64,000 bases of DNA from Thermotogota bacterium (GTDB lineage Bacteria > Thermotogota > Thermotogae > MWEM01): contig DAOTHY010000001.1 of the NCBI GenBank assembly GCA_035447925.1, forward strand, positions 201,004 to 265,003, in the 5' to 3' direction. The notes under the pieces are model-generated. The model was not told where the DNA came from. It was given only the letters and a program-made list of their open reading frames with translations, and made no database searches. This document shows positions 35,240 through 51,780 of this stretch, one piece after another. Positions within the stretch are counted from its first letter, which is position 1; each line of letters begins with the position of its first letter. The position numbers and the translations under genes are program-made.

Positions 35240-35240
35240 C

Positions 35241-35630
35241 TTATTCTCCTTTACAATTTTCACACAAACCTGTGAAATAAAAAATATGTGAATGGATATT
35301 GAAATGGTACTTTTTCAATACCATTTCTTCTAATGACTGCGCCATACACTGATCAAATACCTGAATATTCTGGCACTTCTCGCAGTACAGAAAATGCTTG
35401 AATTTATCTTTGCAAAAAAAGAAACGAACGTTTTTCCCGAAAGAAGCAGAATCCACATAAGATCTTTTTTCTAAGTAATCAATTGCCCGATAAATAGTGG
35501 ACAAATTCATTTTCGCATCAAAAGAGATAGAGGACGCTTCTAATGTCCTTTTGATTTGTTCTGCTGTTAGAGGTTTTTTAGCATGACTTAAAATTTCAAA
35601 AATCCGCTGACGGTTTTTTGTGAATCTCAT
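35241..35630 (-). CDS. zur: Fur family regulator, Zur-like
   Basis: TKNRQRI, LSTIYRAI, HFLYCEKC, GLCENC; first gene of the Zn-ABC operon. Confidence 0.82.
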   Translation of the reverse strand: MRFTKNRQRIFEILSHAKKPLTAEQIKRTLEASSISFDAKMNLSTIYRAIDYLEKRSYVDSASFGKNVRFFFCKDKFKHFLYCEKCQNIQVFDQCMAQSLEEMVLKKYHFNIHSHIFYFTGLCENCKGE

Positions 35631-35643
35631 AAGATCACCTATT

Positions 35644-35658
35644 TGCAAACGATTCGCA
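35644..35658. promoter_or_regulatory. Candidate Fur-family (Zur) operator, imperfect 7-1-7 palindrome
   Basis: TGCAAAC-G-ATTCGCA between an extended -10 (TGGTAGAAT, minus strand) and the zur SD. Confidence 0.5.
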
Positions 35659-35690: not shown

Positions 35691-35723
35691 AAAAAAAAAG
35701 GGTCCATACTAAATGACCCTTTT
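35691..35723 (-). terminator. Intrinsic terminator ending the sulfo-TK operon
   Basis: Minus strand AAAAGGGTCAT-loop-ATGGACCC followed by T9. Confidence 0.75.
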
Positions 35724-35769: not shown

Positions 35770-36243
35770 TTATTTGAAATTCTCATCTTCTATGGTTTGA
35801 ACCTGTTCAAATGCATTGGTTAAGAATTCTCGTTTAAATTCAAACCCTTCAAGAAATTCAGTGTTCAGCCATCTATCCAACATATCTATTGCTTCTTGAG
35901 GAGCCAGTTTCCAGCCTCCCATGGTTAATATATTGGCATTATTGATGACTTTACACATCTTTGCCGCATAAGATCCCTCTACAACAGCTGCATAAACGCC
36001 TTTGAATTTGTTGGCTACAATCGCCATGCCCATACCGGTACCACAACACAATAACCCCTTTTCAAATTCCCCTGATTGCACCTTTTTGGCAACCTTTGAG
36101 GCTACTTCATAATACGCTTGAAAATCGTCCGAATTTTGCATGCCTAAATCTTCAATCTCATATCCCTTTTCAATCAAATGTTCTTTTAAGGCTTCTTTTA
36201 AAGAAAATCCCGATTTATCTGCACCCATGACAATCTTTTTCAT
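35770..36243 (-). CDS. RpiB/LacA/LacB family isomerase, probable sulfoerythrose isomerase (SqwI-like)
   Basis: CGTGMG and ANKFKG retained; DH changed to DK, HN to IN, no C-terminal RH motif; lies in the sulfosugar cluster. Confidence 0.8.
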   Translation of the reverse strand: MKKIVMGADKSGFSLKEALKEHLIEKGYEIEDLGMQNSDDFQAYYEVASKVAKKVQSGEFEKGLLCCGTGMGMAIVANKFKGVYAAVVEGSYAAKMCKVINNANILTMGGWKLAPQEAIDMLDRWLNTEFLEGFEFKREFLTNAFEQVQTIEDENFK

Positions 36244-38273
36244 TCTATATCCTCCTTCATTCTTATCAACATTTCTCGGTAAGGTGATTTCATTCGAACA
36301 AAAACGGGTGGTTTTCCCAATGGCGATGTTATTTTATAAGTGCCACCACTATAGTGTTGTTCGTCCCAAAGATAAATCCATTCATCTTCAGGAAGAAAGA
36401 CATTGTGTTCATTTTCTCCCGCTTTCAAAACGGGACAAATTAACAAGTCTCTTCCTAAAAGGTATTCGGTTTGAATATTTTTCGTTTTATCAGTTGGATA
36501 ATGGGTATACAAGCTTCGCATAAAAGGCAAACCGGTTGTTGCATTTTCTTCGTTCAGAATTTGGAAGTATGGTTTTAATCGAACGTGAATAGCAACCATT
36601 TTTCTAAAATGTTCCAACGTATCCTCATCATAATCAAATTGGCAGTTTAAATCGGGCCTATTTCCTTCATGTGTTCTCATGACTGGCGTATAGGCGGCCA
36701 TTTCAATCCATCTCATCAACAGTTCTTTAGATCTGGTTATCTTCCCCAATTGATTGTCAAAGGTTGTATATCCACCGATATCTGAATGACTAATACCGAA
36801 TCCGCTAAGCCCGAGAGACAATGATGCTGGTATAACTGAAGGCAACCCATCATCCATACTCCAATCCACCATTTGATCTCCGTTCCACATTAAAGTTGAA
36901 TATCTCTGTGTGAATGAATAACCCGCACGTGTAAAGAAGACTGCTTCCCCTAATTTTCCCGACTCTTCAATTGCTTCCCTATTTAATTTAGCCCACAAAA
37001 CCGGAAATTGATTGTGAATTAAAGTCGGATCTTCGCCGGAAAAAAGTTTGCAATCACAGGGAAGGTATTCACCAAAATCAGCCATCCAGCCAGACAATCC
37101 AATTGCAAGCATATTGTTTTTAATAATACCTTTTAACCATTGATAGGCTTCAGGATTTGTTAAATCAACAATCGCCGCAGGAAAGGTAGTGACTTCAACC
37201 AAATATTCTTCATTATTCTGATTTTTTAGAAGATAATGCTTTTCACTCGCCTCACGGTATAAAGCACCTTCTATGGCTAAGAAAGGATTGATGTATCCCA
37301 TCGTACGAATACCACGCTTGTTTAGATTTTTGATTGTTTCAGGAAGATCGGGGTACATCGCTTCTTCAAATTGCCAGTTCCACATGAGCTGTTTTCCAAA
37401 AGAAGTGATGCGTTTTCCCTCCCAGTCTTGAATCCAAATAGCAGAAAGCTTGATCCCTTTATTTCTTGCCAGTTCAACTTTGGGTTGAACCACTTCGGTG
37501 CCACCTTGAAGACCCAATATCAAGCCATCGAAGATCCAATCAGGTAATTTTGGTTGTAATCCGAAATATTTCGCCTGTGTTTGGATCACTTCCTTAAAAT
37601 CTTCTCCGATGCCGATGATGATTTCTTCAGGAACTGACCAGCATTCAATTTGTGAAAAATCATCGTGAGTAAAGTCAAACTCCATGTAACTTGAATGGTT
37701 CACATGACAGAAAAAATTCGAAGTCGTAATGAATGATGGCTGCGGAAAATAGGTGGTGTACCAATCGCCGCCGGCTTTGTCAAACTTATCAGCAAAAAAG
37801 GTCAGTAACTCTTTCTTATTTCTACCTACCCCTTGTTCACTAACCCAAAGAGGTAATTTTGAGCCTTTGAGATTGAGTTTGGAGTATTGTTCGCCACCTC
37901 CGTAAATGCCTTCATTTCTATTCGATATAAAACGACACCAAAAACGATTATATCTGATGGCTTGATTATCAATTTTCATTTTCAGGATTTGATTGTCTTG
38001 AACCTGCAAAGTAACAAAAACCTCTATCGATTCAAAGAAAAATCGGATAACGGCAGTTTCAGGTGTTTTTTCAACGATTTGGAAATTTACCAGCGGATAC
38101 TTTGATTCCAACTCGTTGGTGAACTCAAAATTTCCATGGTACATTTCATAGGTTGAACAACCCTTTCCGATAAAAAAGGCTGGATTTTCTGATGAATGAC
38201 AGAGTATTTCTATTTCTCCAAAACTGATTTGAAGTCCTTGCTTGTTTTCATTTATTTTTAGCATTTCCCTCAA
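36240..38273 (-). CDS. yihQ: GH31 sulfoquinovosidase (YihQ family)
   Basis: LWVSEQGVGRNK, GLQGG, WIQDW, GWMADFGEYLP (nucleophile), WNGDQ (acid/base), HSDIGGYT, RTHEGNRP; closely parallels E. coli YihQ. Confidence 0.92.
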   Translation of the reverse strand: MREMLKINENKQGLQISFGEIEILCHSSENPAFFIGKGCSTYEMYHGNFEFTNELESKYPLVNFQIVEKTPETAVIRFFFESIEVFVTLQVQDNQILKMKIDNQAIRYNRFWCRFISNRNEGIYGGGEQYSKLNLKGSKLPLWVSEQGVGRNKKELLTFFADKFDKAGGDWYTTYFPQPSFITTSNFFCHVNHSSYMEFDFTHDDFSQIECWSVPEEIIIGIGEDFKEVIQTQAKYFGLQPKLPDWIFDGLILGLQGGTEVVQPKVELARNKGIKLSAIWIQDWEGKRITSFGKQLMWNWQFEEAMYPDLPETIKNLNKRGIRTMGYINPFLAIEGALYREASEKHYLLKNQNNEEYLVEVTTFPAAIVDLTNPEAYQWLKGIIKNNMLAIGLSGWMADFGEYLPCDCKLFSGEDPTLIHNQFPVLWAKLNREAIEESGKLGEAVFFTRAGYSFTQRYSTLMWNGDQMVDWSMDDGLPSVIPASLSLGLSGFGISHSDIGGYTTFDNQLGKITRSKELLMRWIEMAAYTPVMRTHEGNRPDLNCQFDYDEDTLEHFRKMVAIHVRLKPYFQILNEENATTGLPFMRSLYTHYPTDKTKNIQTEYLLGRDLLICPVLKAGENEHNVFLPEDEWIYLWDEQHYSGGTYKITSPLGKPPVFVRMKSPYREMLIRMKEDIE

Positions 38274-39211
38274 CCTTTTCTCTTAAGAACTTTTTTGGCG
38301 GCTAACACGATGTCATCAGACGTCATTTGGTATTTTTTTAAAAGGAAATCTGTCAGCCCTACTTCACCAAAATGATCTTTGATTCCGATTCTTTCAAGGG
38401 GTACGGGACAATGTTCTGCTAAGACTTCAGAGACGGCACTTCCCCAGCCGTTAATAATGCTGTGATTTTCAGCGGTTACGATAGCACCAGTTTCTTCAGC
38501 GGCTTTAACTATGGTTTCCCAATCTACTGGTTTTAAGGTATGCATATTTAAAACCCTCGCATGTATCCCTTCTTTTTCTAGAATCTGGGCAGCCACAAGC
38601 GTGTTTTTAATCATTATTCCGCTGCAGATAAGGGTAACATCCGTTCCAGGAAGGATTTCATATATTTTTCCCAGTTCAAATTCCGTTCCATCAGGAAAGT
38701 ATCGGTCATTTGATTTACGAGCTAATCGCATATAAACAGGACTATCAACGGTTGCTATTTGGGGTAAAAGTGATCTTAACTGAGTCCCGTCAGCTGGTTC
38801 AACAACGATCATATTGGGAATTGAACGGATAAGCCCAGCATCTTCAACACTCATGTGTGTTCCACCGTTTAACTCAGCGGTTACCCCGGGATCTGTTCCT
38901 CCTATTTTTGCGTTTAATTTTGCATAAGCAATTGAAATGGCAATTTGATCAAGTACCCTTCTAGTGGCAAACGGTGTAAAAGAATGTGCAAAGGGAATTT
39001 TACCCGTAACAGCAAGTCCGGCTGAAATACCAATCATATTTGCTTCAGCTACACCTACATCGATGAAGCGATCCGGAAATCTTTCTTTGAATGAAGTGGT
39101 TCCAGTAGCTTTCATTAAATCAGCTTCAAGAACAACGATTCGCTCATCACCTTCAGCTAAATCCAATAGTATCTCAGCGTAGATTTGTCTTAATTCCTTT
39201 TCGTTTGACAT
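38270..39211 (-). CDS. Transketolase, C-terminal subunit (SqwH-like)
   Basis: DVGVAEANM, FATRR, GGTHMS, PVYMRLAR, AENHS. Confidence 0.92.
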   Translation of the reverse strand: MSNEKELRQIYAEILLDLAEGDERIVVLEADLMKATGTTSFKERFPDRFIDVGVAEANMIGISAGLAVTGKIPFAHSFTPFATRRVLDQIAISIAYAKLNAKIGGTDPGVTAELNGGTHMSVEDAGLIRSIPNMIVVEPADGTQLRSLLPQIATVDSPVYMRLARKSNDRYFPDGTEFELGKIYEILPGTDVTLICSGIMIKNTLVAAQILEKEGIHARVLNMHTLKPVDWETIVKAAEETGAIVTAENHSIINGWGSAVSEVLAEHCPVPLERIGIKDHFGEVGLTDFLLKKYQMTSDDIVLAAKKVLKRKG

Positions 39212-39212
39212 A

Positions 39213-40046
39213 TTAAACACCTGCTTCCTTTAATTGAGCAACTGCTTTTTTCCATTCTTCGCTTGAGACTTTCATATTATGGCAACTTATTTGATTTTCA
39301 GCAAAATAGGCGCCTTTTCCCTTAATGGTGTTTAAGATAATCATCGTTGGTTTTTCTTTGCTTAATTTTGATTGGTCCAGTGCATCGCATATCTGATTAA
39401 AATCATGTCCGTCTATTGAAAAAACATTCCAGCCGAAGGCTTTCCATTTATCCGATAGCGGTTCAAGTGAATTGATTTCATCAGTTGTGCCATCAATTTG
39501 CATTCTATTGTAATCTTGCATAACGGTTAGATTGTTTATTTTTTTTGAAGAAGCAAACATGGCAGCTTCCCAAATTTGTCCTTCCTGACTTTCTCCATCA
39601 CCGATGATACAATAGACCCTTGATGGCTTTTTATCAATCTTTTTGCCTAAGGCAATTCCAATTGCGGCTGATAATCCTTGTCCTAATGATCCAGCTGTCA
39701 TATCGATTCCCGGAGTGCGTAGCCTATCGCAATGTGAAGGTAAGTTTGTATTCGGTTGATTTAAAGTGTCGGTCCATGATTTTGGAAAAAACCCCTTGTC
39801 TGCTAAAACCGAATATAAAGCGGGCCCACCGTGTCCTTTGGACAGAACGAAATGGTCTCTATCTCCCCATTTAGGGTCTTCTGATTTAACTTGCATGGTT
39901 CTGTAATACAAAGCCACCAGGGCTTCAATGATGGATAAGGAACCACCGATGTGGCCAACACCAAGTTTGCCTATTTGTTCGATGGTCAAACAACGTATTT
40001 CATTCGCTTTTTTTTCCAGTTCCTTCAATTCTGTTTGATTCAACAT
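39213..40046 (-). CDS. Transketolase, N-terminal TPP-binding subunit (SqwG-like)
   Basis: GHIGGSLS, DHFVLSKGH, GSLGQG, GDGESQEG...N TPP motif. Confidence 0.92.
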   Translation of the reverse strand: MLNQTELKELEKKANEIRCLTIEQIGKLGVGHIGGSLSIIEALVALYYRTMQVKSEDPKWGDRDHFVLSKGHGGPALYSVLADKGFFPKSWTDTLNQPNTNLPSHCDRLRTPGIDMTAGSLGQGLSAAIGIALGKKIDKKPSRVYCIIGDGESQEGQIWEAAMFASSKKINNLTVMQDYNRMQIDGTTDEINSLEPLSDKWKAFGWNVFSIDGHDFNQICDALDQSKLSKEKPTMIILNTIKGKGAYFAENQISCHNMKVSSEEWKKAVAQLKEAGV

Positions 40047-40056
40047 ATTCACCTCT

Positions 40057-41172
40057 TTAGTAGATTTGATTTAACAGGTTCACTAACTCGTTTTGCTGAT
40101 ATTTTTTGGGATTGAGTTGTGATATGGGAGCCGATAGTGTGATTTGAGCAATCCTTTCTAAATCCTCTCTTTTCACTCCAATTTGACTAAGGGTCGTTGG
40201 TGCATTGACATTTTTCATGATTTCCGCAATTTTGTTTGAAAACTGTTGAACCGTTTCGTAATTCAAATGACGGATTAAAATATCCATGTTTGGCTTATCA
40301 CTATCGTAATTGTCTTTGATGATTTTTGGCAATGCCAATGCACAAGCAAAACCATGTTCCAAGCCATATTCATTGGTTAGAGGAAAACTCAGTGCGTGTA
40401 GAATGGTTGTCCGTGTTTGTGCAAACGATATTCCGGCAAGAAGACTGGCGTAAAGCAGCTGTTCTCTGCCTTCATAATCCTTTGGAGAAACGTATGTTTT
40501 TTCTATGTTTAGCATGATTAGCTTCATTGCTTCCATTGAAAATAATTTTGACATAGGTTGGGAAGAATCCGCCCAATAGGCTTCAATAGCATGAGTAAAA
40601 GCGTCAAGAGAAGTGGATGCGGTCACTCTTGGCGGCATGGAAAGTGTCATCATCGGATCGAGAATTGCATGATCTGGCCAGAAATATTCGGTGACTAACG
40701 GTTTTTTTTGACCTCTTTCATGATCTGTATAAACGCCAACATTTGTCACTTCACTGCCTGTTCCGGATGTGGTTGGAATGGCAATTAACTGTGTTGTTCT
40801 TCCTTTTAATATTTTTCCGTTAAACAGAAATTCCTGTAAAGTACCATCGGTATCAATGAGACAGGAAATGGCTTTGGCCGTGTCAATGGCACTGCCTCCC
40901 CCAAGTCCGATCACTGTTTTTATCTTTCTTTCCTTGGCGTAGCGGACTCCATTATTGACTGTTGAACAAGAGGGGTTTGGCTCAACCTCACAAAAATTAA
41001 AGATTGAGTCTTTTGGTTTTAATACCTGTTTAATTTGATCAACTAGTCCAACCTTTTTTAGGACAGGATCACTAACAATCAGAATAGGAGATTCGATATG
41101 AAGTGTATTTAAATGTAGGATCTTGTTTTTCCCAAAAAAGATCTCTACCGGTAAATAAAAACGATAGTCCAT
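40057..41172 (-). CDS. Iron-containing alcohol dehydrogenase, probable sulfoacetaldehyde reductase (SqwF-like)
   Basis: VEPNP, GGGSAID, PTTSGTGSE, DAFTHAIE, HALS, HG. Confidence 0.85.
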   Translation of the reverse strand: MDYRFYLPVEIFFGKNKILHLNTLHIESPILIVSDPVLKKVGLVDQIKQVLKPKDSIFNFCEVEPNPSCSTVNNGVRYAKERKIKTVIGLGGGSAIDTAKAISCLIDTDGTLQEFLFNGKILKGRTTQLIAIPTTSGTGSEVTNVGVYTDHERGQKKPLVTEYFWPDHAILDPMMTLSMPPRVTASTSLDAFTHAIEAYWADSSQPMSKLFSMEAMKLIMLNIEKTYVSPKDYEGREQLLYASLLAGISFAQTRTTILHALSFPLTNEYGLEHGFACALALPKIIKDNYDSDKPNMDILIRHLNYETVQQFSNKIAEIMKNVNAPTTLSQIGVKREDLERIAQITLSAPISQLNPKKYQQNELVNLLNQIY

Positions 41173-41200
41173 TCTTTTCCTCCTTGTTATTTTTTTAGCG

Positions 41201-42109
41201 TTATTTTTTATCTGCTTTTTTGTTCTTCTGGACTAATATTATCCCCATTGTTGAGAGTAATACAATAATCATTCCGATTATTTGCAGTCCTGATAATAAT
41301 TCACCCAAAAGGAAGAATCCAATGAACGAGGCAAAAACAGGCATGAGTAATAGGGTGATTCTTACAATCCAAACGGGTAAAATTCTTAAATTATAGTAAT
41401 ATAGAATATAAATTAAAGTCTGCATGATCCCGGTGTAAATCAAAGAAACGATTAACATTGGATGCTCACTAATGGTTTTTTGATCAATTTTACGTTCAAA
41501 TAGAATGAAAACAATCACAAAAATAGAAAATGTAATCAGATTATTGTAAAAAGCAACTGTTGAATCCCTTACTTTTACTCTTGGATCATTTTGAACAGAT
41601 TTAATGATAAATCCGTTCAAAGCAACAAAAAGGGCACTTAAGATGAAGAGGAAATCACCGATTCCATTGAGTTTGAATTTTGTAAAATCGATATTAATGA
41701 CCAATAGGGTGCCTAACAAGATGAAAAGCGTTAATACCCAATCTACTTTGGTAAATTTTTGCTTAAGCAAAAAGATTGAGATGAAATTGGTGAAAAGAAC
41801 ATCCGCTTTCAACAAAATAGCTGCATTTGAAGCTGTTGAAAGCTGTAAGCCCAAAAAGGCTGTAATATCCAGCGAAAATCCTAGAATTCCAATCAGAATC
41901 AATTTGGGCATTACGCTTCTGACTTCTATCAGATTTTTTTGATAACCTTTCAAAAAAATAAAAATGACTAAAAAAATCAAAGCTAAAAAACGTACTGTTA
42001 CACCAACAAAAATAGGAGACAGTTCTAACAGCGAAAACCGATTTACTACGTAAAAACTGGACCAAACAACATTGAGAATTAATAGTGAAAAAATGGATTT
42101 TGAACTCAT
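41201..42109 (-). CDS. DMT/EamA family transporter, candidate sulfonate exporter
   Basis: Ten hydrophobic segments in two EamA-like repeats; GDFLFILSA. Confidence 0.85.
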   Translation of the reverse strand: MSSKSIFSLLILNVVWSSFYVVNRFSLLELSPIFVGVTVRFLALIFLVIFIFLKGYQKNLIEVRSVMPKLILIGILGFSLDITAFLGLQLSTASNAAILLKADVLFTNFISIFLLKQKFTKVDWVLTLFILLGTLLVINIDFTKFKLNGIGDFLFILSALFVALNGFIIKSVQNDPRVKVRDSTVAFYNNLITFSIFVIVFILFERKIDQKTISEHPMLIVSLIYTGIMQTLIYILYYYNLRILPVWIVRITLLLMPVFASFIGFFLLGELLSGLQIIGMIIVLLSTMGIILVQKNKKADKK

Positions 42110-42115
42110 TTTATT

Positions 42116-43573
42116 TTAGATCAACTCATCTTTTAACTTCATGAGTTCCTTTTCATCCATATCTTTAACAGTTTGCCCTTTTCTATGTGCTGTCAGGTAA
42201 TCGATTAATTGTCTGTGATTTTTAGGATTGATTGGATATTTCAAAGCAGCCCATATTCCCAGTGCCATCAAGATGATGGGAACAAAGGCAATTATCAATC
42301 TAATCGTCAGCAAAACTGATTCTGGCTGAATCCTTTCAATCGATTTTTCAACCCCGTTTTCAATGATGATTTCGGGATTCAGATAGCCGGTTACACCTAA
42401 AAGGAATGTAACAAATGCGACTGCAATTCCTGAAGCAAATTTTCTTACAAACGTGATAATGCCGCTGAATGACCCCTCTCTTCTTTCTGAATATGCCAAT
42501 TCACCCACATCCGTGACATCGCCGAATAATGTGTGTGGAATAACAGCAGCTGCACTCACTCCAGAACCTATCAAAGCAGCTAAAATAATGATTACATATA
42601 ATGGCGCTGTAGAAGGAACGATAAAGATCAAAACACTGCCGATAGCCCATATGATCGCACCCACAATATATGCAATCGTTTTGCTTTTCTTTTTTGCGAT
42701 AAAGGCATAAAAGGGTATAAAAAGAATTTCAACGATCAACAGGACTCCCAAAACTAATGACAGATATCCAGGCTGTAAAACGTAATATTTCATGTAGTAA
42801 GCGAAAATCATTGATACAATGTCCATGCTTAGATAGGCAGCAAGAAACATCAACAACAAATAACGGAAGGATTTGATCTTAAACGGGTCAATAAACATCG
42901 CTCTGAAATTGATGGCCTTTTTCTGAGGTCTGAAATCTTCTCGTTCTTTTGTTGAAAAAAATACCCCGATCCATGGAAGAGAGAAAAGCAATCCGAACAC
43001 AATAGCCATGATGATATAGCCAGTTCTAAGATTTTCAAAGGAATTAACAATCAGCATCGGAAGAACAGCACAAATCAATGAAGAACCAAGTGAAAAAGCC
43101 AGTCGAATGGAATTTACAGATGTTCTTTCATTGTAGTCGAGAGAAATTTCTGCAGACATGGCCTGATAAGGAACCATTACTATTGTTACAACCGTGTTGA
43201 ACAATAAATAGGCAAATAAAACATAAATGAATTTTGATATTTGGGAATCAAACTGAACCGGATACCACAACATGAAAAATGAAATGAAAATCAGAATTAT
43301 TCCAGCTAAGAAGTAAGGTCTTCTTCTGCCGTATTTCGATTTGGTTCCGTCAGTAATCGTTCCCATGAAGGGATCAGTAACAGCATCCCAGATTTTTCCT
43401 ATCAGAAAGACCGGTGAAACATAGACCATATTTAGACCAATTACATCGGTTAAAAACAAGGCGAAGAAAAAATTAATGATATTAAATGCCCCGCCACCGA
43501 ATATATCTCCAGCACCAAAAAGCAGCTTAGTCTTTAGAGGGATTTTGTCATGTACTCCATTATGATTATCCAT
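42116..43573 (-). CDS. MFS glycoside-pentoside-hexuronide (GPH) symporter
   Basis: FGAGD, KIWDAVTDPFMG, GRRRPY, VPYQAM, DYNERT, REGSFSG. Confidence 0.9.
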   Translation of the reverse strand: MDNHNGVHDKIPLKTKLLFGAGDIFGGGAFNIINFFFALFLTDVIGLNMVYVSPVFLIGKIWDAVTDPFMGTITDGTKSKYGRRRPYFLAGIILIFISFFMLWYPVQFDSQISKFIYVLFAYLLFNTVVTIVMVPYQAMSAEISLDYNERTSVNSIRLAFSLGSSLICAVLPMLIVNSFENLRTGYIIMAIVFGLLFSLPWIGVFFSTKEREDFRPQKKAINFRAMFIDPFKIKSFRYLLLMFLAAYLSMDIVSMIFAYYMKYYVLQPGYLSLVLGVLLIVEILFIPFYAFIAKKKSKTIAYIVGAIIWAIGSVLIFIVPSTAPLYVIIILAALIGSGVSAAAVIPHTLFGDVTDVGELAYSERREGSFSGIITFVRKFASGIAVAFVTFLLGVTGYLNPEIIIENGVEKSIERIQPESVLLTIRLIIAFVPIILMALGIWAALKYPINPKNHRQLIDYLTAHRKGQTVKDMDEKELMKLKDELI

Positions 43574-43576
43574 ATT

Positions 43577-44893
43577 CTACCTCACAATCTCCCATTTGTT
43601 GATATGGGCTAAAATTTCAAAAGATTTTGTGTAATCACCATATACAACAGAGATATGGTGTGCGAATCCATTGTAAACAACTTTGTCAAGGAGTTCAGTT
43701 AATGGGAGGTCAAATCGTGCTTTCATATATGTGCCACGCAATTCTTTTTCCATTGGAAAGGCCTCACCTTTTTGCAGCAACAACCTTGTTTTTCCTCTTG
43801 CCGTATCTATTCGACAGAATGAAATGATTCCTGGCTTCATCACAAAATCTGCTGTTACGCCTTTTCCACCGGCATGATAAGAATCCAGCGAGCAATGACA
43901 AACCCCATCGGTCAAATTACAAGGAGCAACTCCGCAATGCCATAACAATGCAAAATTCTCTTTTAAGTCAACTTGAGAGAAATCCGCTAAAAATGGTGTT
44001 TGGGCACCTGCAGCTTGATGAGCAACCATACTCATGAGTCCTTCAACATCTCCTTCACAACCCAGTAAATATCCTTTAGATTGAAGATAAGACATTGAAG
44101 CACAAGGAGCAATACCAAATTCAGCTGCAAATTCAGGCCAGCATCGAATTGCTAAGGCATCTACATGATTGTTATCCAAAAAATGTTTGAATTTGACTGA
44201 TAATTCAGCTACTTTATAAAGCTGTTCTGAGTTGATTGCATTAACATCGAATAATTCAACGAGTTCTTGTTGAATTTGTTGAACTTCTAACTCTGGGGAG
44301 ATGGTATTGAATACTTCAGATAACTCATAATGATCAACGAGCATGCCGGTTTTTGAATAAGCGCCTAATTCATCAATTCCAACATTGAAAAAACCTTTGG
44401 CCCGATAACCCAAAATCCCTATGTGATAATCACTTAATGCCTTTTTCATTTTGATTGCCTTTAGCCAATTCTCATCCAACTCATCAGAGACAGAAACCCA
44501 AAAGGAATCTGTCCCGCCTTTGTAAAGATTGGAAGCGTTCAAATTAACGCCACACACCGAATTTAATCTTATTTTACCCCCGTTATATGGAAGTTCTGGA
44601 AGACCCCAGAGCAGTATTGGTTTTTGAACGCTCTTATTGATAATTAAAGCTAAATGCCCTAAATGAAAAGTACCACTGATGATTATAACAGCATCGACAT
44701 GTTGGCTCAATAACATTTCCGATGCCTGTTGTGCATCCTCGGGTTCAATAAGTGGCTCTTCAACAAATACAAACTCCAAGTCTTTTCTTTCTTTGTATTT
44801 TTTAATCATATTTCTGTATATTTCCCCTGCGGTTAGATAATCAAAAGTTTTTCTAACCAGACAAACCACACCAATTCTTACCAGATTCTTCAT
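43577..44893 (-). CDS. L-fucose/L-arabinose isomerase family protein, probable sulfoquinovose isomerase (SqvD-like)
   Basis: IRCWPEF, CEGDVEG, LWHCG, HHISVVYGD; AGGAGTGA SD. Confidence 0.85.
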   Translation of the reverse strand: MKNLVRIGVVCLVRKTFDYLTAGEIYRNMIKKYKERKDLEFVFVEEPLIEPEDAQQASEMLLSQHVDAVIIISGTFHLGHLALIINKSVQKPILLWGLPELPYNGGKIRLNSVCGVNLNASNLYKGGTDSFWVSVSDELDENWLKAIKMKKALSDYHIGILGYRAKGFFNVGIDELGAYSKTGMLVDHYELSEVFNTISPELEVQQIQQELVELFDVNAINSEQLYKVAELSVKFKHFLDNNHVDALAIRCWPEFAAEFGIAPCASMSYLQSKGYLLGCEGDVEGLMSMVAHQAAGAQTPFLADFSQVDLKENFALLWHCGVAPCNLTDGVCHCSLDSYHAGGKGVTADFVMKPGIISFCRIDTARGKTRLLLQKGEAFPMEKELRGTYMKARFDLPLTELLDKVVYNGFAHHISVVYGDYTKSFEILAHINKWEIVR

Positions 44894-44913
44894 TGAATCA
44901 CTCCTGTATTCTC

Positions 44914-46137
44914 TTATTTGTAAATTGCACCCGTATCGTAAAAAAGTCTTTCCAAAGCCAAAGCCAGAGGTCCGATTGCTTTGGTTTGGTATTCCAGGCA
45001 ACTGGTCACGATCTTTTTTTTCACCGAATCATCACAAAGCATTTCGCTGATTTTGTTGACCAATTGTTCCATTAACGTATTATATTTAAATAGCTCTCCA
45101 AAAAAAACAATTCTTTGAGGATCCAAAATTTTCATGAGATTGATAATACCGGTAGCCATATAGGCAATGTTTTCATCTATAGTCTTTTTGATGAAGGAAT
45201 CGCCTTTTTCATATGCATCAAAAATCATAGCCGTGTCAATATTCAAAGGCTCTTCTTGGCATAGTTCGTACAATATGGGCGTTTCTGTCTTTGAGAAGGC
45301 ATTTTTAACATATTGCTTCATACGTCTGGTGGAAACGACTGTTTCCAGACATCCTTTTTGACCACAGTTGCATAGGGGGCCATCGGGTTCTACAATGATA
45401 TGACCGATTTCCCCTGCTTGATTTTCCGAGCCATAAATCAGCCTTTTATTGATGACAATAGCAGCACCAATTCCGGGACCATGCTTGATAAAAACAAAAT
45501 CCTCAACTGTATCAATCTTTGAGCAATTAATTTCAGCAATTGCCAAAGCCCTAACGTTATTATCGACAATTACCGGTAGTTTGAGTGATTTTGTCAATAG
45601 TTCACGAATACTCACTTCGCTTTCCCATATCCCGTAAGCATCCACACTTTTTCCTTTTTGAGGATCAACTTTTCCAACTATTCCAACGCCGATACCCAAG
45701 ATGTTGCCTTTGGAAATATCGAGTTTCCAGAGAATGTCTTTGATTTGATCGACAATGATGTTCAGGAACACCTCCGGTGATACACTGGCATCTGTAATAA
45801 ATTCTTTGTTTGAAAGAATGTTTAAATTAAGATCTGAAATTGCTATGGTTGTCATATCTTTTTCAATGCTGATCCCTAAAACAAATTTGTGGCTTTTTTC
45901 AATTTCGATTAAGATTTTCTTCCTTCCTGCTTTACCATTTCTCTCTGCAAGACCAACTTCCTTAATAATGCCCTCATGAAGCATCTCATTGGAAATAATG
46001 GTAATTGCTCCAGCTGATAAACCTGAAATAGCCGCAATGTCCTTTCTGGACATCGGACCGTTTTCTCTGAGTATATTTAGCAGAACGGATCGATTGACTT
46101 TTTTGATGGAATTTAAATCCATTACCTTTTTCTTCAT
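44914..46137 (-). CDS. ROK family transcriptional regulator
   Basis: N-terminal HTH (MSRKDIAAISGLS), DNNVRALA, GPGIGA, GEIGH, CNCGQKGCLE. Confidence 0.92.
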   Translation of the reverse strand: MKKKVMDLNSIKKVNRSVLLNILRENGPMSRKDIAAISGLSAGAITIISNEMLHEGIIKEVGLAERNGKAGRKKILIEIEKSHKFVLGISIEKDMTTIAISDLNLNILSNKEFITDASVSPEVFLNIIVDQIKDILWKLDISKGNILGIGVGIVGKVDPQKGKSVDAYGIWESEVSIRELLTKSLKLPVIVDNNVRALAIAEINCSKIDTVEDFVFIKHGPGIGAAIVINKRLIYGSENQAGEIGHIIVEPDGPLCNCGQKGCLETVVSTRRMKQYVKNAFSKTETPILYELCQEEPLNIDTAMIFDAYEKGDSFIKKTIDENIAYMATGIINLMKILDPQRIVFFGELFKYNTLMEQLVNKISEMLCDDSVKKKIVTSCLEYQTKAIGPLALALERLFYDTGAIYK

Positions 46138-46184
46138 TTTCAAACACCACTTTATAATGATCTGTAAAAAGATAAATCAATTCT

Positions 46185-46193
46185 ATTATATCA
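46185..46193 (-). promoter_or_regulatory. Extended -10 promoter of the ROK/sulfo-TK operon
   Basis: TGATATAAT on the minus strand. Confidence 0.55.
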
Positions 46194-46329
46194 GAATGAG
46201 TTTAAAAATTAAAAGATTAAAATAATTGGCATATCTTCCAAAATACATCATTTTTATCGATTATCCTAAAATAACTAAAGAAATCTTTGATTACTGATAA
46301 TATCCTTCTATATTCACTGAATATGTTTT

Positions 46330-46358
46330 TTGATTTTTTTATGGAACTTTTGTATAAT
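46330..46358 (+). promoter_or_regulatory. Sigma70-type promoter of the divergent ABC importer
   Basis: TTGATT (46330-46335), 17 nt spacer, TATAAT (46353-46358). Confidence 0.7.
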
Positions 46359-46423
46359 AGCGTTGTAATTGATTAAAGCTCTATATTAATTCATCTAATA
46401 ACCTTAAAAGGAGGTATAATTTA

Positions 46424-47686
46424 ATGAGAAAATTTATGCTCGTCGTTTTAACCGTGTTGTTTGCCACAATGATGTTTTCACAAACCATTAAAGTATTGGC
46501 TTGGGATGATGCCCATTCCCAATCCTGGAATGCTTTGGTGAGTGAGTTTGAAAAAGCTACGGGAATCAAAGTAGACCTTGAATTGATTCCTTCTGGTTCA
46601 ATGCTTCAAAAAACATCGTTAAATGTTACAGAGAACAAAGCAAATTATGATTTGGTGGCTATTGATGAAGGCAACGTTGCCAAATTTGGAGATTTGTTAC
46701 TGCCTTATTCACAATGGCCGGCTGGGAAAGTATTTCCTAAGGTTGGAACAACAGATATTCCAGCAGCAATCTTTGCAGCAGCTGAATGGGACGGAAAGCT
46801 GGTTGGTATACCAAATAACGGAAACATGTATATTTGGATGACCAGAGAAGACCTCATCAACGATGAGACAAACAAAACTGAATTCTATAATCAATTTGGT
46901 TATGAACTTCAAGTTCCTCAAACCTTGGATCAGTTAATGAATATGTGTGTCTTTTTTGAACCCAAGGGTATATTTGGTTTTGCCCCATTCACTGCTTCAA
47001 GCGAGGGTGCAACCTGTGAAGCGGTTATGTTTTTTGAGTCTTTTGGAACCAGCGTACTTGAAATGGAAAAAGGAAATTATAAAGTCTCTCTGGACAGGGA
47101 TAAGGCCTTACAAGCCATTCGGTTCTATAAGGAATTGATGTCTTTTTCACCAGAAGGTGCTTTAAGCATGGGGCATGCCGAGAGAATCGCTGCTTTTAGT
47201 GATGGACTTGTTCTGTCCATGTTCCAATGGCCGGGGATTGTTCCTTCCCATGAAAACGAAGACGAATCAATGGTAGCGGGCCAGATCATTTACAGTGCAC
47301 CTCCTGCCGGACCGATCGCTAGAACAGCTGTCAGAGGCTGCTGGATTTTCGGTATTCCAAAGGCTTCCAGTAATCAGGCAGCGGCTGCAGAATTTGCTTA
47401 CTGGGTCAATAATTATGAAGTGGGATTGAAACTTGCAAAATTGGGAATGACACCTGTAAGAACCGATTTACTAAATGAACTATCAAACGAAAAACCTTGG
47501 TACACTGGAATGGCTGAAGCAGGTCAGTTCGCCGTCAGTAGGCCAAACCGATCAGTTCATTATCCTGAACTTTCAGAAGTTATTAAGAATAACTGGCTAG
47601 GTGCCGTAACTAACAGAATGACTCCAGAGCAAGCTGTCGATAACATGATTAAAGAGTTAACAGAACTGTTGGAGACCTATGAATAA
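46424..47686 (+). CDS. Carbohydrate ABC transporter (CUT1) substrate-binding protein
   Basis: Signal peptide; EFEKATGIKV, GKLVGIP, REDL, GCWIFGIP. Confidence 0.88.
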   Translation: MRKFMLVVLTVLFATMMFSQTIKVLAWDDAHSQSWNALVSEFEKATGIKVDLELIPSGSMLQKTSLNVTENKANYDLVAIDEGNVAKFGDLLLPYSQWPAGKVFPKVGTTDIPAAIFAAAEWDGKLVGIPNNGNMYIWMTREDLINDETNKTEFYNQFGYELQVPQTLDQLMNMCVFFEPKGIFGFAPFTASSEGATCEAVMFFESFGTSVLEMEKGNYKVSLDRDKALQAIRFYKELMSFSPEGALSMGHAERIAAFSDGLVLSMFQWPGIVPSHENEDESMVAGQIIYSAPPAGPIARTAVRGCWIFGIPKASSNQAAAAEFAYWVNNYEVGLKLAKLGMTPVRTDLLNELSNEKPWYTGMAEAGQFAVSRPNRSVHYPELSEVIKNNWLGAVTNRMTPEQAVDNMIKELTELLETYE

Positions 47687-48584
47687 AAGTACCAATATGA
47701 AAAGGCTTCCCCTTCGTAAGAAGAGGGGGCCTTTTTTATACTTTATTCTCCCAGCTGCATTGCTGGTTGGTGTTGTACTTGTTTTCCCTATTATATACGG
47801 TTTTGGCCTTTCTTTTTTTCATTGGCCTCAAGTAAATGATGGGACAAGATCTTTTATTCAGTTTAAGAACTATCTGGATCTGTTCAAAGATCAAGAATTT
47901 TGGCACTCTTTATTTTTACAGTTGGGTTTTATTTTTATCGCCATTCCAATTGAACTGATTATTGGATTTTTTGTGGCGATTCTTTTCAACCACGATTTCC
48001 CTTTTTCTGGTTTTTTAAGAACCCTATTGCTTTTACCCGTTTTTATCCTACCTATATTATCCGGGTTGACCTGGAAACTCATGTTGCAGCCCAGATATGG
48101 CGCCATTACTTATTTGCTATCGGTATTCGGAATGGAATTTCCTCAAGGAATCCTTTCAGATCAATCTTTGGCTTATACAGCCGTGGTTATTCAGGATATC
48201 TGGAGGATGTGGCCTTTCATGTTCATGATATTGTATGCCGGTATTACCAGCTTGCCAAAGGATGTGATTGAAGCAGCCGAGATAGACGGAGCTGGTTTCT
48301 TAAAAAAAACTTTTGCTATCACTTTGCCTATGCTTAGGGGAACCATCACTACCGCTATCCTTCTTAGAACAATCGATGCGTTAAGAATCTTCTCCGAAGT
48401 TTTCGTTATGACCGGAGGAGGGCCCGGAAATGGAACGATGCTGTTTTCGCTTTACATTCATAAACAAGCTTTTGAGTTTGGAAAACTGGGTTATGCATCG
48501 GCAATGGCTGTAATTTTGATTGTCATTTCTTTATTCTTCGCTTTTGGGTTAGTCAGAAAAAACATGGATATCGATACGATGTAG
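47679..48584 (+). CDS. Carbohydrate ABC transporter permease
   Basis: EAAEIDGA EAA loop, RTIDALRIFSEV, GYASA. Confidence 0.92.
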   Translation: MNKSTNMKRLPLRKKRGPFLYFILPAALLVGVVLVFPIIYGFGLSFFHWPQVNDGTRSFIQFKNYLDLFKDQEFWHSLFLQLGFIFIAIPIELIIGFFVAILFNHDFPFSGFLRTLLLLPVFILPILSGLTWKLMLQPRYGAITYLLSVFGMEFPQGILSDQSLAYTAVVIQDIWRMWPFMFMILYAGITSLPKDVIEAAEIDGAGFLKKTFAITLPMLRGTITTAILLRTIDALRIFSEVFVMTGGGPGNGTMLFSLYIHKQAFEFGKLGYASAMAVILIVISLFFAFGLVRKNMDIDTM

Positions 48585-48596
48585 TGTGGGGTGTAG

Positions 48597-49430
48597 ATGA
48601 TGAAAATGAAAAAGAGAAAAAAAATAATAAAATGGATTGTTTTTCTATCAGCACTAATCATTGTGCTTGTGGAATTGTTCCCTATTTGGATCATTGTGTC
48701 AAGTGGTTTTAAGAGGGATTTAGATATAAGAAACAATAATCCTTTTGATTTCAAAGCCACCCTTAAAAGCTATGAGCTTGTTTTTCAGAAAAGTGACTTC
48801 GTTCCATCGATCAGAAATTCGCTGATTGTTGGGTTGTCATCCACTATTATTTCATTGATTTTTGGTTCAATGGCATCCTACGGAATTGCGCGTTTTAGAT
48901 TTAAAGGCAGAAAAGGTCTGTCGTATTCATTTTTGGTGTCCAGAATGGTTCCGCAAATTGCACTCTCAGTTCCTATTTTTATTTTATTTGACCGTCTTTC
49001 TTTAACCGACACTCATATAGCATTAATTCTGGCTTATACCAGTTTTAATTTACCGTATATTATCTGGCTTTTGCTGCCGTTTTTCAGTTCTGTATCCCCT
49101 TCGTTTGAGGAAGCGGCGTTAGTGGATGGATGTAATAAACGACAAGTATTTTGGAGAATTTTTCTTCCCTTAACCGCTCCAGGTCTTGTTGTTGCTTCGA
49201 TTTTCGGATTTATTATGGCTTGGAATGAATATATCTATGCTCTCATTTTAACGGGTAATGCCACCAAAACAGCACCTATTGCTGTTAATGGATTTATGGG
49301 ACAGTATGCACCAAAATGGGGGCAACTTGCTGCGTCGGGAACTCTGATATTGATCCCGATCGTTATATTTACACTAACTTTACAGAAATATATTATAAAA
49401 GGACTGACAGCCGGTGGTGTTAAAGGATGA
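48597..49430 (+). CDS. Carbohydrate ABC transporter permease
   Basis: EEAALVDGC, AWNEY, GLTAGGVKG. Confidence 0.92.
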   Translation: MMKMKKRKKIIKWIVFLSALIIVLVELFPIWIIVSSGFKRDLDIRNNNPFDFKATLKSYELVFQKSDFVPSIRNSLIVGLSSTIISLIFGSMASYGIARFRFKGRKGLSYSFLVSRMVPQIALSVPIFILFDRLSLTDTHIALILAYTSFNLPYIIWLLLPFFSSVSPSFEEAALVDGCNKRQVFWRIFLPLTAPGLVVASIFGFIMAWNEYIYALILTGNATKTAPIAVNGFMGQYAPKWGQLAASGTLILIPIVIFTLTLQKYIIKGLTAGGVKG

Positions 49431-50243
49431 TTATTTTAAATAAATTGTGGGTTTGATGTATTTAAAATTTTGTTTCAAGTTTATCAGGCTTTCCGAATGA
49501 CCAATAATAAAGATTCCTGAAGCGACCAATGAATGAAAAAAACGATTAACAAGTGATTCTCGGACCGGTTCACTAAAGTAAATCATGACATTTCGGCAGA
49601 AGATGATGTCAAAATCTTTTTTAAATTTGAAGTTTTTCGTGAGGTTAAAGCTTCGAAAAGTGATGAATTGTTTCAAACCCGGATTGATTTGAAACCCATT
49701 CAAATCCTTTTTGAAGTATTTACTCAAATAATAAGGGGGGAGTTCATTTTTAATCGTGTAGGGGTATATTCCTTTTATTGCAGTTAAAAGGCTTTCGGTA
49801 CTAATATCTGTTGCCAGTATTTTCGGATAAATATCAGGAAATGTTTCTCTGAAAAACATTGCTAAAGTATAGGGTTCCTCTCCGGATGAACAACCTGCAC
49901 TCCAGATTCTGATTTCTTTATTCAACAGTATTCTTCGATTTCTTTGTGCCATGGTGGGTAAATAATCTTTCAAGAAAGAAAAGTGTTGGTTTTCCCTGAA
50001 AAAGTCTGTTTTATGTGTTGTTATTTTGTGGACAAAAGAATTCCATTGTTCCGTATCTTCATTCGTTTTTAAAAAGTCCAGAAGATCGTTATAAGTGTCA
50101 ATTTCATTCATTCTCATGAAACTGTCAATTTTTGACTGCAACATTTGCCGTTTATTCATTTTGCATTCCATACCAAGGCGTTTGCTAAGATAATCCGTAA
50201 ATTCAGCGTATATCTTTTCTGTAAACTGCTGTTTATAAGGCAT
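49431..50243 (-). CDS. cheR: Chemotaxis protein-glutamate O-methyltransferase
   Basis: TTHKTDFFRE, IWSAGCSSGEEPY, ATDIS, DIIFCRNVMIYF, GHSES. Confidence 0.95.
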   Translation of the reverse strand: MPYKQQFTEKIYAEFTDYLSKRLGMECKMNKRQMLQSKIDSFMRMNEIDTYNDLLDFLKTNEDTEQWNSFVHKITTHKTDFFRENQHFSFLKDYLPTMAQRNRRILLNKEIRIWSAGCSSGEEPYTLAMFFRETFPDIYPKILATDISTESLLTAIKGIYPYTIKNELPPYYLSKYFKKDLNGFQINPGLKQFITFRSFNLTKNFKFKKDFDIIFCRNVMIYFSEPVRESLVNRFFHSLVASGIFIIGHSESLINLKQNFKYIKPTIYLK

Positions 50244-51295: not shown

Positions 51296-51780
51296 TCTTC
51301 GTACCAATCCGAATCTCGAATCTTTTTTAGTTTATAAACCAACAATTCGCCATTTTCGGTGTTAAAAACAATTTTGCGACCAAGAGCTCCACCAGTATCT
51401 TTGGAATCAATCTGATAATGATTGCTTTTGAGCCAGTGTAAGGCAAACTCAACATTTAAAGGACCGACGCTTGATTTCATGGTCTCGTTCGAAGACCCAC
51501 CCAGTAAATGAATTTCAAGATTATTACGGTCAGATTTAATCTTTTTCATCAGATAGAATAGGTAGGGAATGGAGACGTTTCCATACCTTCCATTGGGCTT
51601 GTTTTCAGCAGATGGTAAAACATAATGATTCATGCCTCCACAATGGTTGAACTTATCCCAAATCGCTATGGCAACACATGATCCTAAAACGGTATGAATA
51701 TAATATGGTTCTTGACTAACAAAAACGTAACCTGGATGAAGGAAATAACTGTTACCGTTCTCGCCAAATTTTGTCTCCAA
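51292..51780 (-). CDS. cheD: Chemoreceptor glutamine deamidase
   Basis: TVLGSCVA (Cys), GGMNHYVLP (His), DTGG..GRK; TTG start. Confidence 0.92.
   Translation of the reverse strand: METKFGENGNSYFLHPGYVFVSQEPYYIHTVLGSCVAIAIWDKFNHCGGMNHYVLPSAENKPNGRYGNVSIPYLFYLMKKIKSDRNNLEIHLLGGSSNETMKSSVGPLNVEFALHWLKSNHYQIDSKDTGGALGRKIVFNTENGELLVYKLKKIRDSDWYEE

Follow-up and report, generated by a model that had tools for sequence, protein, structure and literature searches.

Organization of the locus

The generic names alpha-glucosidase, transketolase and ribose-5-phosphate isomerase B would fit several products of a gene cluster in a Thermotogota genome, which raises the question whether the cluster serves ordinary sugar metabolism or the degradation of sulfoquinovose, a sulfo-sugar of plants. 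The cluster lies within a stretch of 64,000 nucleotides (the window; contig DAOTHY010000001.1, assembly GCA_035447925.1). Considering its sequence and gene context, on which our reading is based, we regard the locus as probably (at roughly 0.8) a reductive transketolase-type sulfoglycolysis (sulfo-TK) cluster of an uncultured Thermotogota, ending in isethionate.

Open reading frames searched with Pfam and NCBIfam models revealed nine closely packed genes in one run on the minus strand (35770-46143; Table 1). The intergenic distances vary from -8 to +28 nt, and thus fit a single operon. All genes named in the initial annotation were recovered, in place or nearly so, including the divergent sugar ABC importer with its binding protein and two permeases (46424-49430), in which no ATPase gene was found. 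The terminator proposed there was also recovered; the automatic scan, which allowed loops of up to 8 nt, did not pick it up because its loop is longer. Upstream of the operon, the extended -10 element TGATATAAT is common to the window and a related genome (L006), the remaining spacer having diverged, and the -10 of the promoter-like site preceding the importer is kept in L006 as well.

Table 1. Features of the cluster and the evidence for their assignment.
Feature	Position	Strand	Evidence
Intrinsic terminator, 3' end of operon	35691-35723	-	Stem GGGTC/GACCC around a 10-nt loop, followed by T9 (minus-strand sequence); sequence read and fold
SqwI-like RpiB-family isomerase, proposed sulfoerythrose to sulfoerythrulose	35770-36243	-	PF02502, E=7e-43
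GH31 YihQ-family glycosidase, Gln-type, proposed sulfoquinovosidase	36240-38264	-	NCBIfam PRK10426, 902 bits
Transketolase C-terminal subunit, SqwH-like	38270-39220	-	PF02779 + PF02780
Transketolase N-terminal TPP-binding subunit, SqwG-like	39213-40052	-	PF00456, E=2e-51
Iron-type alcohol dehydrogenase (ADH), SqwF-like, proposed sulfoacetaldehyde reductase	40057-41172	-	PF00465 + PF25137
EamA/DMT permease, proposed isethionate exporter	41201-42109	-	PF00892
GPH-family MFS symporter, putative sulfoquinovose/SQ-glycoside importer	42116-43573	-	PF13347, 276 bits
FucI-like isomerase, SqvD/SftI-like, proposed sulfoquinovose to sulfofructose	43577-44893	-	NCBIfam SftI, E=2e-59
ROK-family regulator, N-terminal winged HTH	44914-46143	-	PF00480 + HTH_24/MarR, residues 20-61
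Extended -10 element, operon promoter	46185-46193	-	Kept in related genome L006
Promoter-like site, ABC importer	46330-46358	+	TTGATT, 17 nt, TATAAT; promoter scan
Sugar-binding protein, ABC importer	46424-47686	+	Full-length match to SmoF 7NBZ, E=5e-10
ABC permease 1	47679-48584	+	UgpA/GlcT/MalF-like
ABC permease 2	48597-49430	+	GlcU/MalG-like

Two gene starts were revised. For the FucI-like isomerase, whose listed frame is 43577-45001, the most likely start is Met37 (ATG at 44893), where its homologues also begin; this choice removes the overlap with the ROK gene. For the GH31 gene, the ATG at 38264 is the probable start and not 38273, as close homologues count 674 amino acids.

Transketolase and RpiB-like isomerase

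The residues that line the head-group site of the split transketolase provide a functional signature. The C-terminal subunit carries Arg11, Ala38, Asp110 and Arg168, the residues published for sulfofructose transketolases, in contrast to the Arg, Ser, His and Arg of canonical enzymes (PMC11659671). Among the orthologues that adjoin SqwI-like genes the Asp is present in 67/67 and the Ala in 63/68. The N-terminal subunit matches the split transketolase 6YAK (E=2e-85) and shares 50-92% identity with the subunit that accompanies SqwI-like genes in other genomes.

The RpiB-like protein retains Asp9, the catalytic Cys67-Gly-Thr and Asn101. Compared to E. coli RpiB, however, the ring-opening His99 is replaced by Ile, and the phosphate-binding His10, Arg110 and Arg133 by Lys, Trp and Phe, respectively, a signature common to 120 homologues. 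Judged by sequence, it represents a distinct RpiB subfamily devoid of the phosphate-binding and ring-opening residues. It is the only RpiB-family gene of the genome; an RpiA is encoded elsewhere. The activity of SqwI has never been measured directly, not even for the archetype (PMC9594981).

A glycosidase with glutamine in place of Arg301

The GH31 protein scores well above the cut-off of the NCBI YihQ model (553 bits) and matches the E. coli YihQ structure 5AED with E=1.7e-211. It is about 50% identical over the full length to YihQ and the other solved members of the GH31 sulfoquinovosidase family (5AED, 5OHS, 6PNR, 8R56), with which it shares the counterparts of the catalytic pair Asp405 and Asp472, and of Gln262, Gln288, Trp304 and Tyr508. 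The position of YihQ Arg301, however, is occupied by a glutamine (Gln295, codon 37389-37391), a feature that the initial annotation had missed. Arg301 holds the sulfonate in E. coli YihQ (PMC8006165, PMC12780224); it is one of three published sulfonate-binding residues and is kept in all six solved members of the family, so that no structure of a Gln-type enzyme is among them. Its replacement counts against our reading. Moreover, the loop matching YihQ 362-373 is altered alongside (EVTTFPAA versus DFGEFYGG), and an acidic residue of most Arg-type enzymes is Thr. The glutamine is found in 67 of the 120 best homologues. The Gln-type enzyme belongs to a large clade whose members also sit in sulfonate clusters containing SuyAB, and it constitutes an unstudied point.

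Isomerase, alcohol dehydrogenase and transporters

The two remaining enzymes score far below the cut-offs of their sulfo-specific models. The FucI-like isomerase reaches 201 bits against the SftI model (cut-off 700) and the iron-type ADH 236 bits against the sulfoacetaldehyde reductase model SarD (cut-off 700), and both shortfalls count against our reading. Of 80 SqwI loci from other genomes, 22 contain an orthologue of the isomerase (50-72% identity) and 54 an iron-type ADH within 10 kb. An orthologous ROK gene adjoins the isomerase gene in L006, L011, L019, L042 and L046, and ROK-isomerase pairs are also found in Bacillota clusters. Sulfoacetaldehyde is the presumed substrate of the ADH.

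The DMT permease, found within 10 kb in 32 of the 80 loci and mostly adjoining the ADH, is proposed to export isethionate, a direction of transport that we infer; in Faecalicatena a DMT permease has already been put forward as sulfonate exporter (PMC11659671). Two TauE genes are located elsewhere in the genome. The GPH symporter attains 233 bits against TIGR00792 (cut-off 231) and its orthologues lie in the cluster of Fervidobacterium and those of other Thermotogota. The ABC binding protein resembles SmoF, which binds sulfoquinovosyl-glycerol, over its full length; maltose-binding proteins match better, but over part of the length. The binding protein shares 83% identity with its orthologue in L006 and 51% with that of the Fervidobacterium cluster.

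Conservation

In the 80 loci of other genomes the SqwI-like gene lies at most 10 kb from a split transketolase in 66 cases and from a YihQ-family GH31 in 30. Of 151 Thermotogota species genomes, 29 carry the SqwI-like gene; within the genus to which the window belongs, it is present in 7 of 8 genomes. The identical gene set recurs in identical order in the related Thermotogota loci L004, L006, L009 and L010, and in slightly changed order in Fervidobacterium islandicum (L002/L013), which argues against a chance arrangement. SqvB (DUF4867), present in most published sulfo-TK clusters, was found nowhere in the genome, which counts against our reading, nor in any of the five Thermotogota genomes tested.

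Proposed pathway and alternative explanations

Sulfoquinovose or its glycerol glycoside would be imported via the GPH symporter and/or the ABC importer, set free by the GH31 enzyme and converted to sulfofructose by the FucI-like isomerase. The split TPP-dependent transketolase would then transfer C1-C2 of sulfofructose to glyceraldehyde-3-phosphate, yielding xylulose-5-phosphate and 4-deoxy-4-sulfoerythrose. After isomerization of the latter to sulfoerythrulose by the RpiB-like protein, the same transketolase would generate a second xylulose-5-phosphate and sulfoacetaldehyde, which the iron-type ADH may reduce to isethionate with regeneration of NAD+, and the isethionate would leave via the DMT permease. 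A fused transketolase, an RpiA and a transaldolase, also encoded by the genome, could return the xylulose-5-phosphate to central metabolism. As long as the sugar is absent, both divergent promoters are probably repressed by the ROK protein. Fermentation of sulfoquinovose with excretion of isethionate is what this scheme predicts; our literature search revealed no assayed enzyme for any Thermotogota sulfo-TK cluster, which weighs against it.

That the genes form an ordinary alpha-glucoside operon with a canonical transketolase, RpiB and a general alcohol dehydrogenase is very improbable and, by the residue comparisons, already disfavoured. Apart from the generic names, it could invoke the PRK05571 score of the RpiB-like protein (135.1 bits, cut-off 135), but the same protein stays below the rpiB equivalog cut-off (119.8 versus 138.65), the phosphate-binding residues are gone from it and from the operon transketolase, and the GH31 protein falls in the YihQ model and not in the MalA/xylosidase models. 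Moreover, a fused transketolase that keeps the canonical Ser/His is encoded separately, as is an RpiA. With Ala38/Asp110 in the operon transketolase and a distinct subfamily for the RpiB-like protein, these two enzymes do not group with those of the canonical pentose-phosphate pathway, and the sulfo-TK identity advanced in the initial annotation is borne out. A further possibility, unlikely yet the least so of the alternatives, is that the cluster serves another 6-substituted alpha-glucoside, uncharged or of other charge, in which case the Gln-type GH31 would not be a sulfoquinovosidase and a different C2 alcohol would be made. The glutamine, its frequency among homologues, the remodelled loop and the lack of a solved Gln-type structure speak for it. 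Nevertheless, Gln-type enzymes occur in Thermotoga sp. Ku-13t beside the sulfolactate sulfo-lyase SuyAB, in a transaldolase cluster that also encodes an aldehyde dehydrogenase, and in Alicyclobacillus inside a sulfo-EMP2-type cluster. In addition, the same SqwI/transketolase core, with identical Ala/Asp head-group residues, has an Arg-type GH31 as its partner in 12 loci and a Gln-type in 17. Trp304 and Tyr508 are retained, and the head-group sites of the RpiB-like protein and the transketolase keep one or two Arg/Lys, which fits an anionic substrate.

It is also improbable, though somewhat less so than an ordinary operon, that a sulfo-TK pathway operates here without excretion, the sulfoacetaldehyde or isethionate being processed further, for instance desulfonated, and the DMT permease acting as importer. 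What the ADH reduces and which way the permease transports are both deduced, and the TauE genes elsewhere could be cited in its favour. However, Pfam and NCBIfam searches found no SqwD or SqwKL homologues in the cluster, the genome's single glycyl radical enzyme is identified as a trans-4-hydroxy-L-proline dehydratase (1242 bits, cut-off 1100) and not as an isethionate lyase, and the ADH and DMT genes are adjacent and co-conserved. We therefore retain the sulfo-TK cluster ending in isethionate as the preferred reading.

Comparison with known systems

The reductive sulfo-TK pathway of Clostridium sp. MSTE9 (YihQ, SqvD, SqwGH, SqwI, SqwF, SqwE; Liu et al. 2021 via PMC9594981, PMC12890257) shares its predicted chemistry and enzyme set with the window, a likeness drawn from the published description. 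As far as that description goes, both have a YihQ-family GH31, a FucI-like isomerase, a split TPP transketolase, PF02502 and PF00465 proteins and an ABC importer, whereas the window has a DMT/EamA permease in place of the TauE-type SqwE, lacks SqvB and has an extra GPH symporter. Its GH31 differs from other YihQ-family enzymes in the Gln for Arg301.

Faecalicatena sp. DSM22707 (Borusak et al. 2024, PMC11659671) likewise combines an Arg/Ala/Asp/Arg split transketolase with a SqwI-type isomerase, a candidate sulfoacetaldehyde reductase, a drug/metabolite permease and an ABC importer. Unlike the window, it has transaldolases, resulting in a bifurcated pathway, and an NAD-dependent GH188-type sulfoquinovosidase together with SqvB.

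The uncharacterised cluster of Fervidobacterium islandicum H-21 (NZ_CP126499.1) has the binding protein, both permeases, GPH, EamA, the iron-type ADH, transketolase N and C, a Gln-type GH31, a FucI-like isomerase and the SqwI-like gene in common with the window. It differs in having a LacI-type regulator where the window has ROK, an isomerase of a different FucI-like lineage (27% identity) and a nearby TauE gene.

The ROK regulator, the DMT permease and the two importers, on which the initial annotation had based a variant architecture, are indeed there. Like the missing SqvB, however, they are either usual for the lineage or described in earlier work. Since reviews name Thermotogae as sulfo-TK carriers (PMC12890257), both the pathway and its occurrence in this lineage were known, and on both counts the novelty had been rated too high. 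Apart from the Gln-for-Arg GH31, the cluster is an ordinary new example of a published route.

Organization of the cluster

A compact group of nine minus-strand open reading frames, assigned to families with Pfam and NCBIfam, carries the putative transketolase route from sulfoquinovose to isethionate (sulfo-TK). The initial annotation had described the region from 35770 to 49430 as an apparently complete cluster of this kind that looked like a variant. The genes and their order, the families, the residue signatures, the co-occurrence in other genomes and the occurrence in the phylum are shown by the sequences and their comparison, while all substrates, the transport directions, the regulatory role of ROK and the final product are inferred. 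Considering that neighbouring genes are separated by at most 28 nt and overlap by up to 8 nt, the nine genes are likely transcribed as a single unit. The most likely start of the FucI-like isomerase is the ATG at 44893, with which its apparent overlap with the ROK gene disappears, and the glycosidase probably starts at 38264, as its close homologues are 674 aa long. The terminator behind the RpiB-like gene was absent from the automatic promoter/terminator scan because the loop limit of that scan was 8 nt.

The ROK protein, the putative regulator, is encoded next to a 280-nt divergent spacer, in which no operator palindrome was found. A comparison with the spacer of a related Thermotogota genome (L006) revealed that conservation is limited to the two -10 elements. 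The sugar ABC transporter on the other side, presumably an importer, has no ATPase gene with it. The chemotaxis adaptation genes cheR, cheB and cheD adjoin it, and a link between these and the sugar cluster is not evident.

Features of the cluster and its surroundings (window coordinates)
Feature	Position	Strand	Basis or remark
Transaldolase/FSA-type gene	1-327 (contig C1: 200683-201330)		Runs across the left edge of the window
RpiA	15657-16163		PF06026, 217 bits
Fur-family regulator and metal ABC transporter	33616-35648		Flank, unrelated to the cluster
Intrinsic terminator, 3' of RpiB-like gene	35691-35723	-	GGGTC, 10 nt, GACCC, T9; by eye and folding
RpiB-family	35770-36243	-	PF02502
GH31	36240-38273 as ORF	-	NCBIfam PRK10426
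Transketolase, C half	38270-39220	-	Pfam/NCBIfam
Transketolase, N half	39213-40052	-	Pfam/NCBIfam
Fe-ADH	40057-41172	-	PF00465
EamA/DMT permease	41201-42109	-	Pfam/NCBIfam
GPH-type MFS	42116-43573	-	Pfam/NCBIfam
FucI-like isomerase	43577-45001 as ORF; 43577-44893 with revised start	-	Pfam/NCBIfam
ROK with N-terminal winged helix	44914-46143	-	Pfam/NCBIfam
Extended -10, TGATATAAT	46185-46193	-	Divergent spacer
Promoter-like site, TTGATT-17-TATAAT	46330-46358	+	Divergent spacer
Sugar ABC importer: sugar-binding protein and two permeases	46424-49430	+	Beyond the 280-nt spacer
CheR, CheB, CheD	49431-51789	-	Adjoin the ABC importer

Separation from the pentose-phosphate genes

According to the initial annotation, a grouping of the operon-encoded proteins with canonical pentose-phosphate enzymes would refute the sulfo-TK reading. 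The transketolase and the RpiB-like protein, however, differ from the canonical enzymes in specific residues, and canonical genes are encoded separately in the genome, which is 91% complete at 2.86 Mb. RpiA, a transaldolase and a fused transketolase on contig C52 constitute a canonical non-oxidative pentose-phosphate set apart from the operon. The fused transketolase, which keeps the phosphate-orienting Ser and His, is found at C52:13337-14709; part of this gene is masked (X in the translation), and since it extends beyond the contig end, its C-terminal part is unassembled.

The head-group site of the sulfofructose transketolase was reported to consist of Arg, Ala, Asp and Arg, versus Arg, Ser, His and Arg in the canonical enzyme (Borusak et al., PMC11659671). 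Our comparison covered these four residues of the published motif, which also includes a Phe. In the C subunit of the operon, Ala38 and Asp110 replace Ser and His, whereas Arg11 and Arg168 are kept. The same exchange is seen in the C subunits encoded beside SqwI-like genes in other genomes (Asp in 67/67, Ala in 63/68).

No second protein of the RpiB family is encoded in the genome, and the RpiB-like protein scores under the cut-off of the NCBIfam rpiB equivalog. Relative to the RpiB of E. coli and Clostridium thermocellum it retains Asp9, the catalytic Cys-Gly-Thr and Asn100, and has Lys, Ile, Trp and Phe in the place of His10, His99, Arg110 and Arg133, respectively (E. coli numbering). All of the nearest 120 homologues have Trp at position 110 and Ile, Val or Leu at position 99, and nearly all share the remaining substitutions. 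In RpiB, His99 takes part in the opening of the furanose ring, while His10, Arg110 and Arg133 bind the phosphate. Judged from these residues, the losses would fit an acyclic C4 substrate with an anionic group other than phosphate, and 4-deoxy-4-sulfoerythrose is the predicted substrate. Thus, Ala/Asp in the transketolase C subunit and Lys, Ile, Trp and Phe in the RpiB-like protein provide signatures that separate the cluster from pentose-phosphate genes.

Isomerase, reductase, exporter and SqvB

The match of the FucI-like isomerase to SftI spans the whole model (E=2e-59), with a score of 201 bits where 700 is the cut-off, and a search of the Protein Data Bank sequences gave no match. At least three FucI-like lineages with a mutual identity of 24-27% fill the position of the sulfoquinovose isomerase across sulfoglycolysis clusters. 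The genes compared were those of Fervidobacterium islandicum H-21 (NZ_CP126499.1; locus L002, 12022-13470), Thermotoga sp. Ku-13t (L084, 11965-13374), locus L085 (16387-17742) and the window; two distinct lineages occur within the Thermotogota. Likewise, the Fe-ADH belongs to PF00465, and its score on the SarD model (236 bits, cut-off 700) is no better than on other Fe-ADH models.

The TauE-type exporter SqwE is absent from the locus, although two TauE genes are present on other contigs; its position is held by the EamA/DMT permease, a candidate exporter. SqvB (DUF4867) is a putative ring-opening or mutarotase enzyme that is frequent, though not universal, in published clusters. Neither this genome nor four other Thermotogota genomes with sulfoglycolysis clusters contain the corresponding domain, PF16161. 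The same search recovered SqvB in all six Bacillota and spirochaete genomes that served as positive controls, mostly inside the cluster, and the absence of a mutarotase asserted in the initial annotation is thereby confirmed.

The glycosidase and its missing arginine

The GH31 enzyme is a member of the YihQ family. It passes the model of E. coli YihQ (PRK10426) with 902 bits, where 553 is the cut-off, stays far under the cut-offs of the alpha-xylosidase and MalA models, and aligns end to end with the YihQ structure 5AED (E=1.7e-211). Asp399 and Asp466 align with the nucleophile Asp405 and the acid/base Asp472 of YihQ, Trp298 and Tyr502 with Trp304 and Tyr508, and the equivalents of Gln262 and Gln288 are kept as well. 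The sulfonate pocket of YihQ is formed by Arg301, Trp304 and Tyr508 (PMC8006165), and the motif of the sulfoquinovosidase family has been described as Q/E-RWY (PMC12780224). It is this motif that fails at a single residue, the position of Arg301 being taken by Gln295.

A sequencing error does not account for the substitution. Gln occupies the position in 67 of the 120 best homologues (Gln-type, versus Arg-type), the division between the two states follows the tree with three changes by parsimony, and the state covaries almost perfectly with the next loop, which reads EVTTFPAA in the Gln-type and DFGEFYGG in the Arg-type. More specifically, the acidic residue of this loop is Glu or Asp in 39 of the 53 Arg-type sequences, whereas Thr is found in 59 of the 67 Gln-type sequences. 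All six solved members of the family are Arg-type, and the Gln-type branch is without a solved structure. In the N-terminal domain, residue 139 is Lys or Arg in 58/67 Gln-type sequences and Asn in most of the Arg-type; Lys139 could be a compensating positive charge.

The genomic context of the Gln-type genes links them to sulfoglycolysis in several ways. An extended sulfo-TAL cluster has been reported for Thermotogae (PMC9594981), and in such a cluster of Thermotoga sp. Ku-13t (LNFY01000011.1, 3486-14373) an ABC importer, a transaldolase, SuyA-like and SuyB-like genes, an aldehyde dehydrogenase, a FucI-like isomerase and a LacI regulator accompany a Gln-type GH31 gene. The latter is flanked by the aldehyde dehydrogenase and the isomerase, with the transaldolase and the SuyAB-type sulfo-lyase subunits immediately upstream, which ties the Gln-type glycosidase to genes for sulfonate cleavage. 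In Alicyclobacillus kakegawensis the Gln-type gene is clustered with a FucI-like isomerase, a PfkA-type kinase and a class II aldolase, a combination that matches the sulfo-EMP2 layout. Moreover, among the loci found via SqwI, the same core of transketolase, isomerase and ADH is combined with an Arg-type GH31 in 12 cases and with a Gln-type in 17. On the basis of these contexts the GH31 of the window is considered a probable sulfoquinovosidase.

The Gln-type branch, with Gln for Arg301 and Thr for the acidic loop residue, may recognize the sulfonate in a charge-neutral manner, and the ring opening proposed for SqvB may be dispensable in Thermotogota, for instance at high temperature; we rate the probability of this reading at slightly over one half (about 0.55). 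If charge-neutral recognition holds, motif calls based on RWY would miss a large share of the sulfoquinovosidases in genomes and metagenomes, and existing motif-based counts could be underestimates. A description of an arginine-free branch of the sulfoquinovosidase family was not found in our literature search.

Product fate

No homologues of SqwD or SqwKL are present in the cluster. An isethionate lyase, with which the organism could mineralize sulfoquinovose completely, was considered and rejected: the only glycyl radical/PFL-like gene of the genome (C5:44608-46974) encodes a trans-4-hydroxy-L-proline dehydratase, its NCBIfam score of 1242 bits exceeding the cut-off of 1100. Directly upstream (C5:43697-44611) lies a 304-aa ORF that is likely its activase. 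The pathway therefore most likely ends in isethionate, which would be excreted.

Distribution and relation to known systems

A scan with an alignment of SqwI-like proteins, for which every prokaryote species was represented by a single genome, confirmed 505 relatives; the 80 best loci were retained. At a distance of up to 10 kb from the SqwI-like gene, at least 66 of these 80 have a split transketolase, 54 an Fe-ADH, 32 a DMT permease, 30 a YihQ-family GH31 and 22 an orthologue of the isomerase of the window, all lower bounds since many loci lie on short contigs. Within the Thermotogota the SqwI-like gene is found in 29 of 151 species genomes and 11 of 48 genera; in the genus to which the window belongs, 7 of 8 genomes carry it. 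The pathway is thus common in the phylum, and anaerobic Thermotogota may supply isethionate to sulfite-reducing partners where the biomass of phototrophs is degraded.

Related Thermotogota genomes have exactly the gene order of the window; in L006 the divergent binding protein is followed by ROK, isomerase, DMT, ADH, transketolase N, transketolase C, GH31 and SqwI. The cultured strain Fervidobacterium islandicum H-21 shares this gene set; its regulator is LacI and its isomerase belongs to another FucI-like lineage. The DMT permease, the two importers and the ROK regulator, which had been put forward as variant traits, are all present, but none of them is peculiar to this genome. The DMT permease is frequent among the SqwI-found loci, and a drug/metabolite permease was earlier proposed as the exporter in Faecalicatena (PMC11659671); Fervidobacterium carries both importers; and ROK-isomerase pairs occur in the Bacillota loci L019, L042 and L046. 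Together with the absence of SqvB, the traits therefore represent the usual form of the cluster in Thermotogota.

In Ruminiclostridium papyrosolvens C7 (L056, 10506-13704) the SqwI-like gene is followed by two transaldolase-family genes and a FucI-like isomerase, and then by a DMT gene, a layout that resembles the bifurcated transketolase/transaldolase arrangement of Faecalicatena. Clostridium sp. MSTE9, the source of the archetype, is not among the best 80 of the 505 relatives. Generic pipelines name the genes alpha-glucosidase, transketolase and rpiB, which gives the present annotation its value. The sulfo-TK pathway itself is already published and reviews count the Thermotogae among its carriers (PMC12890257); with the present locus, an uncultured Thermotogota genus joins those already known.
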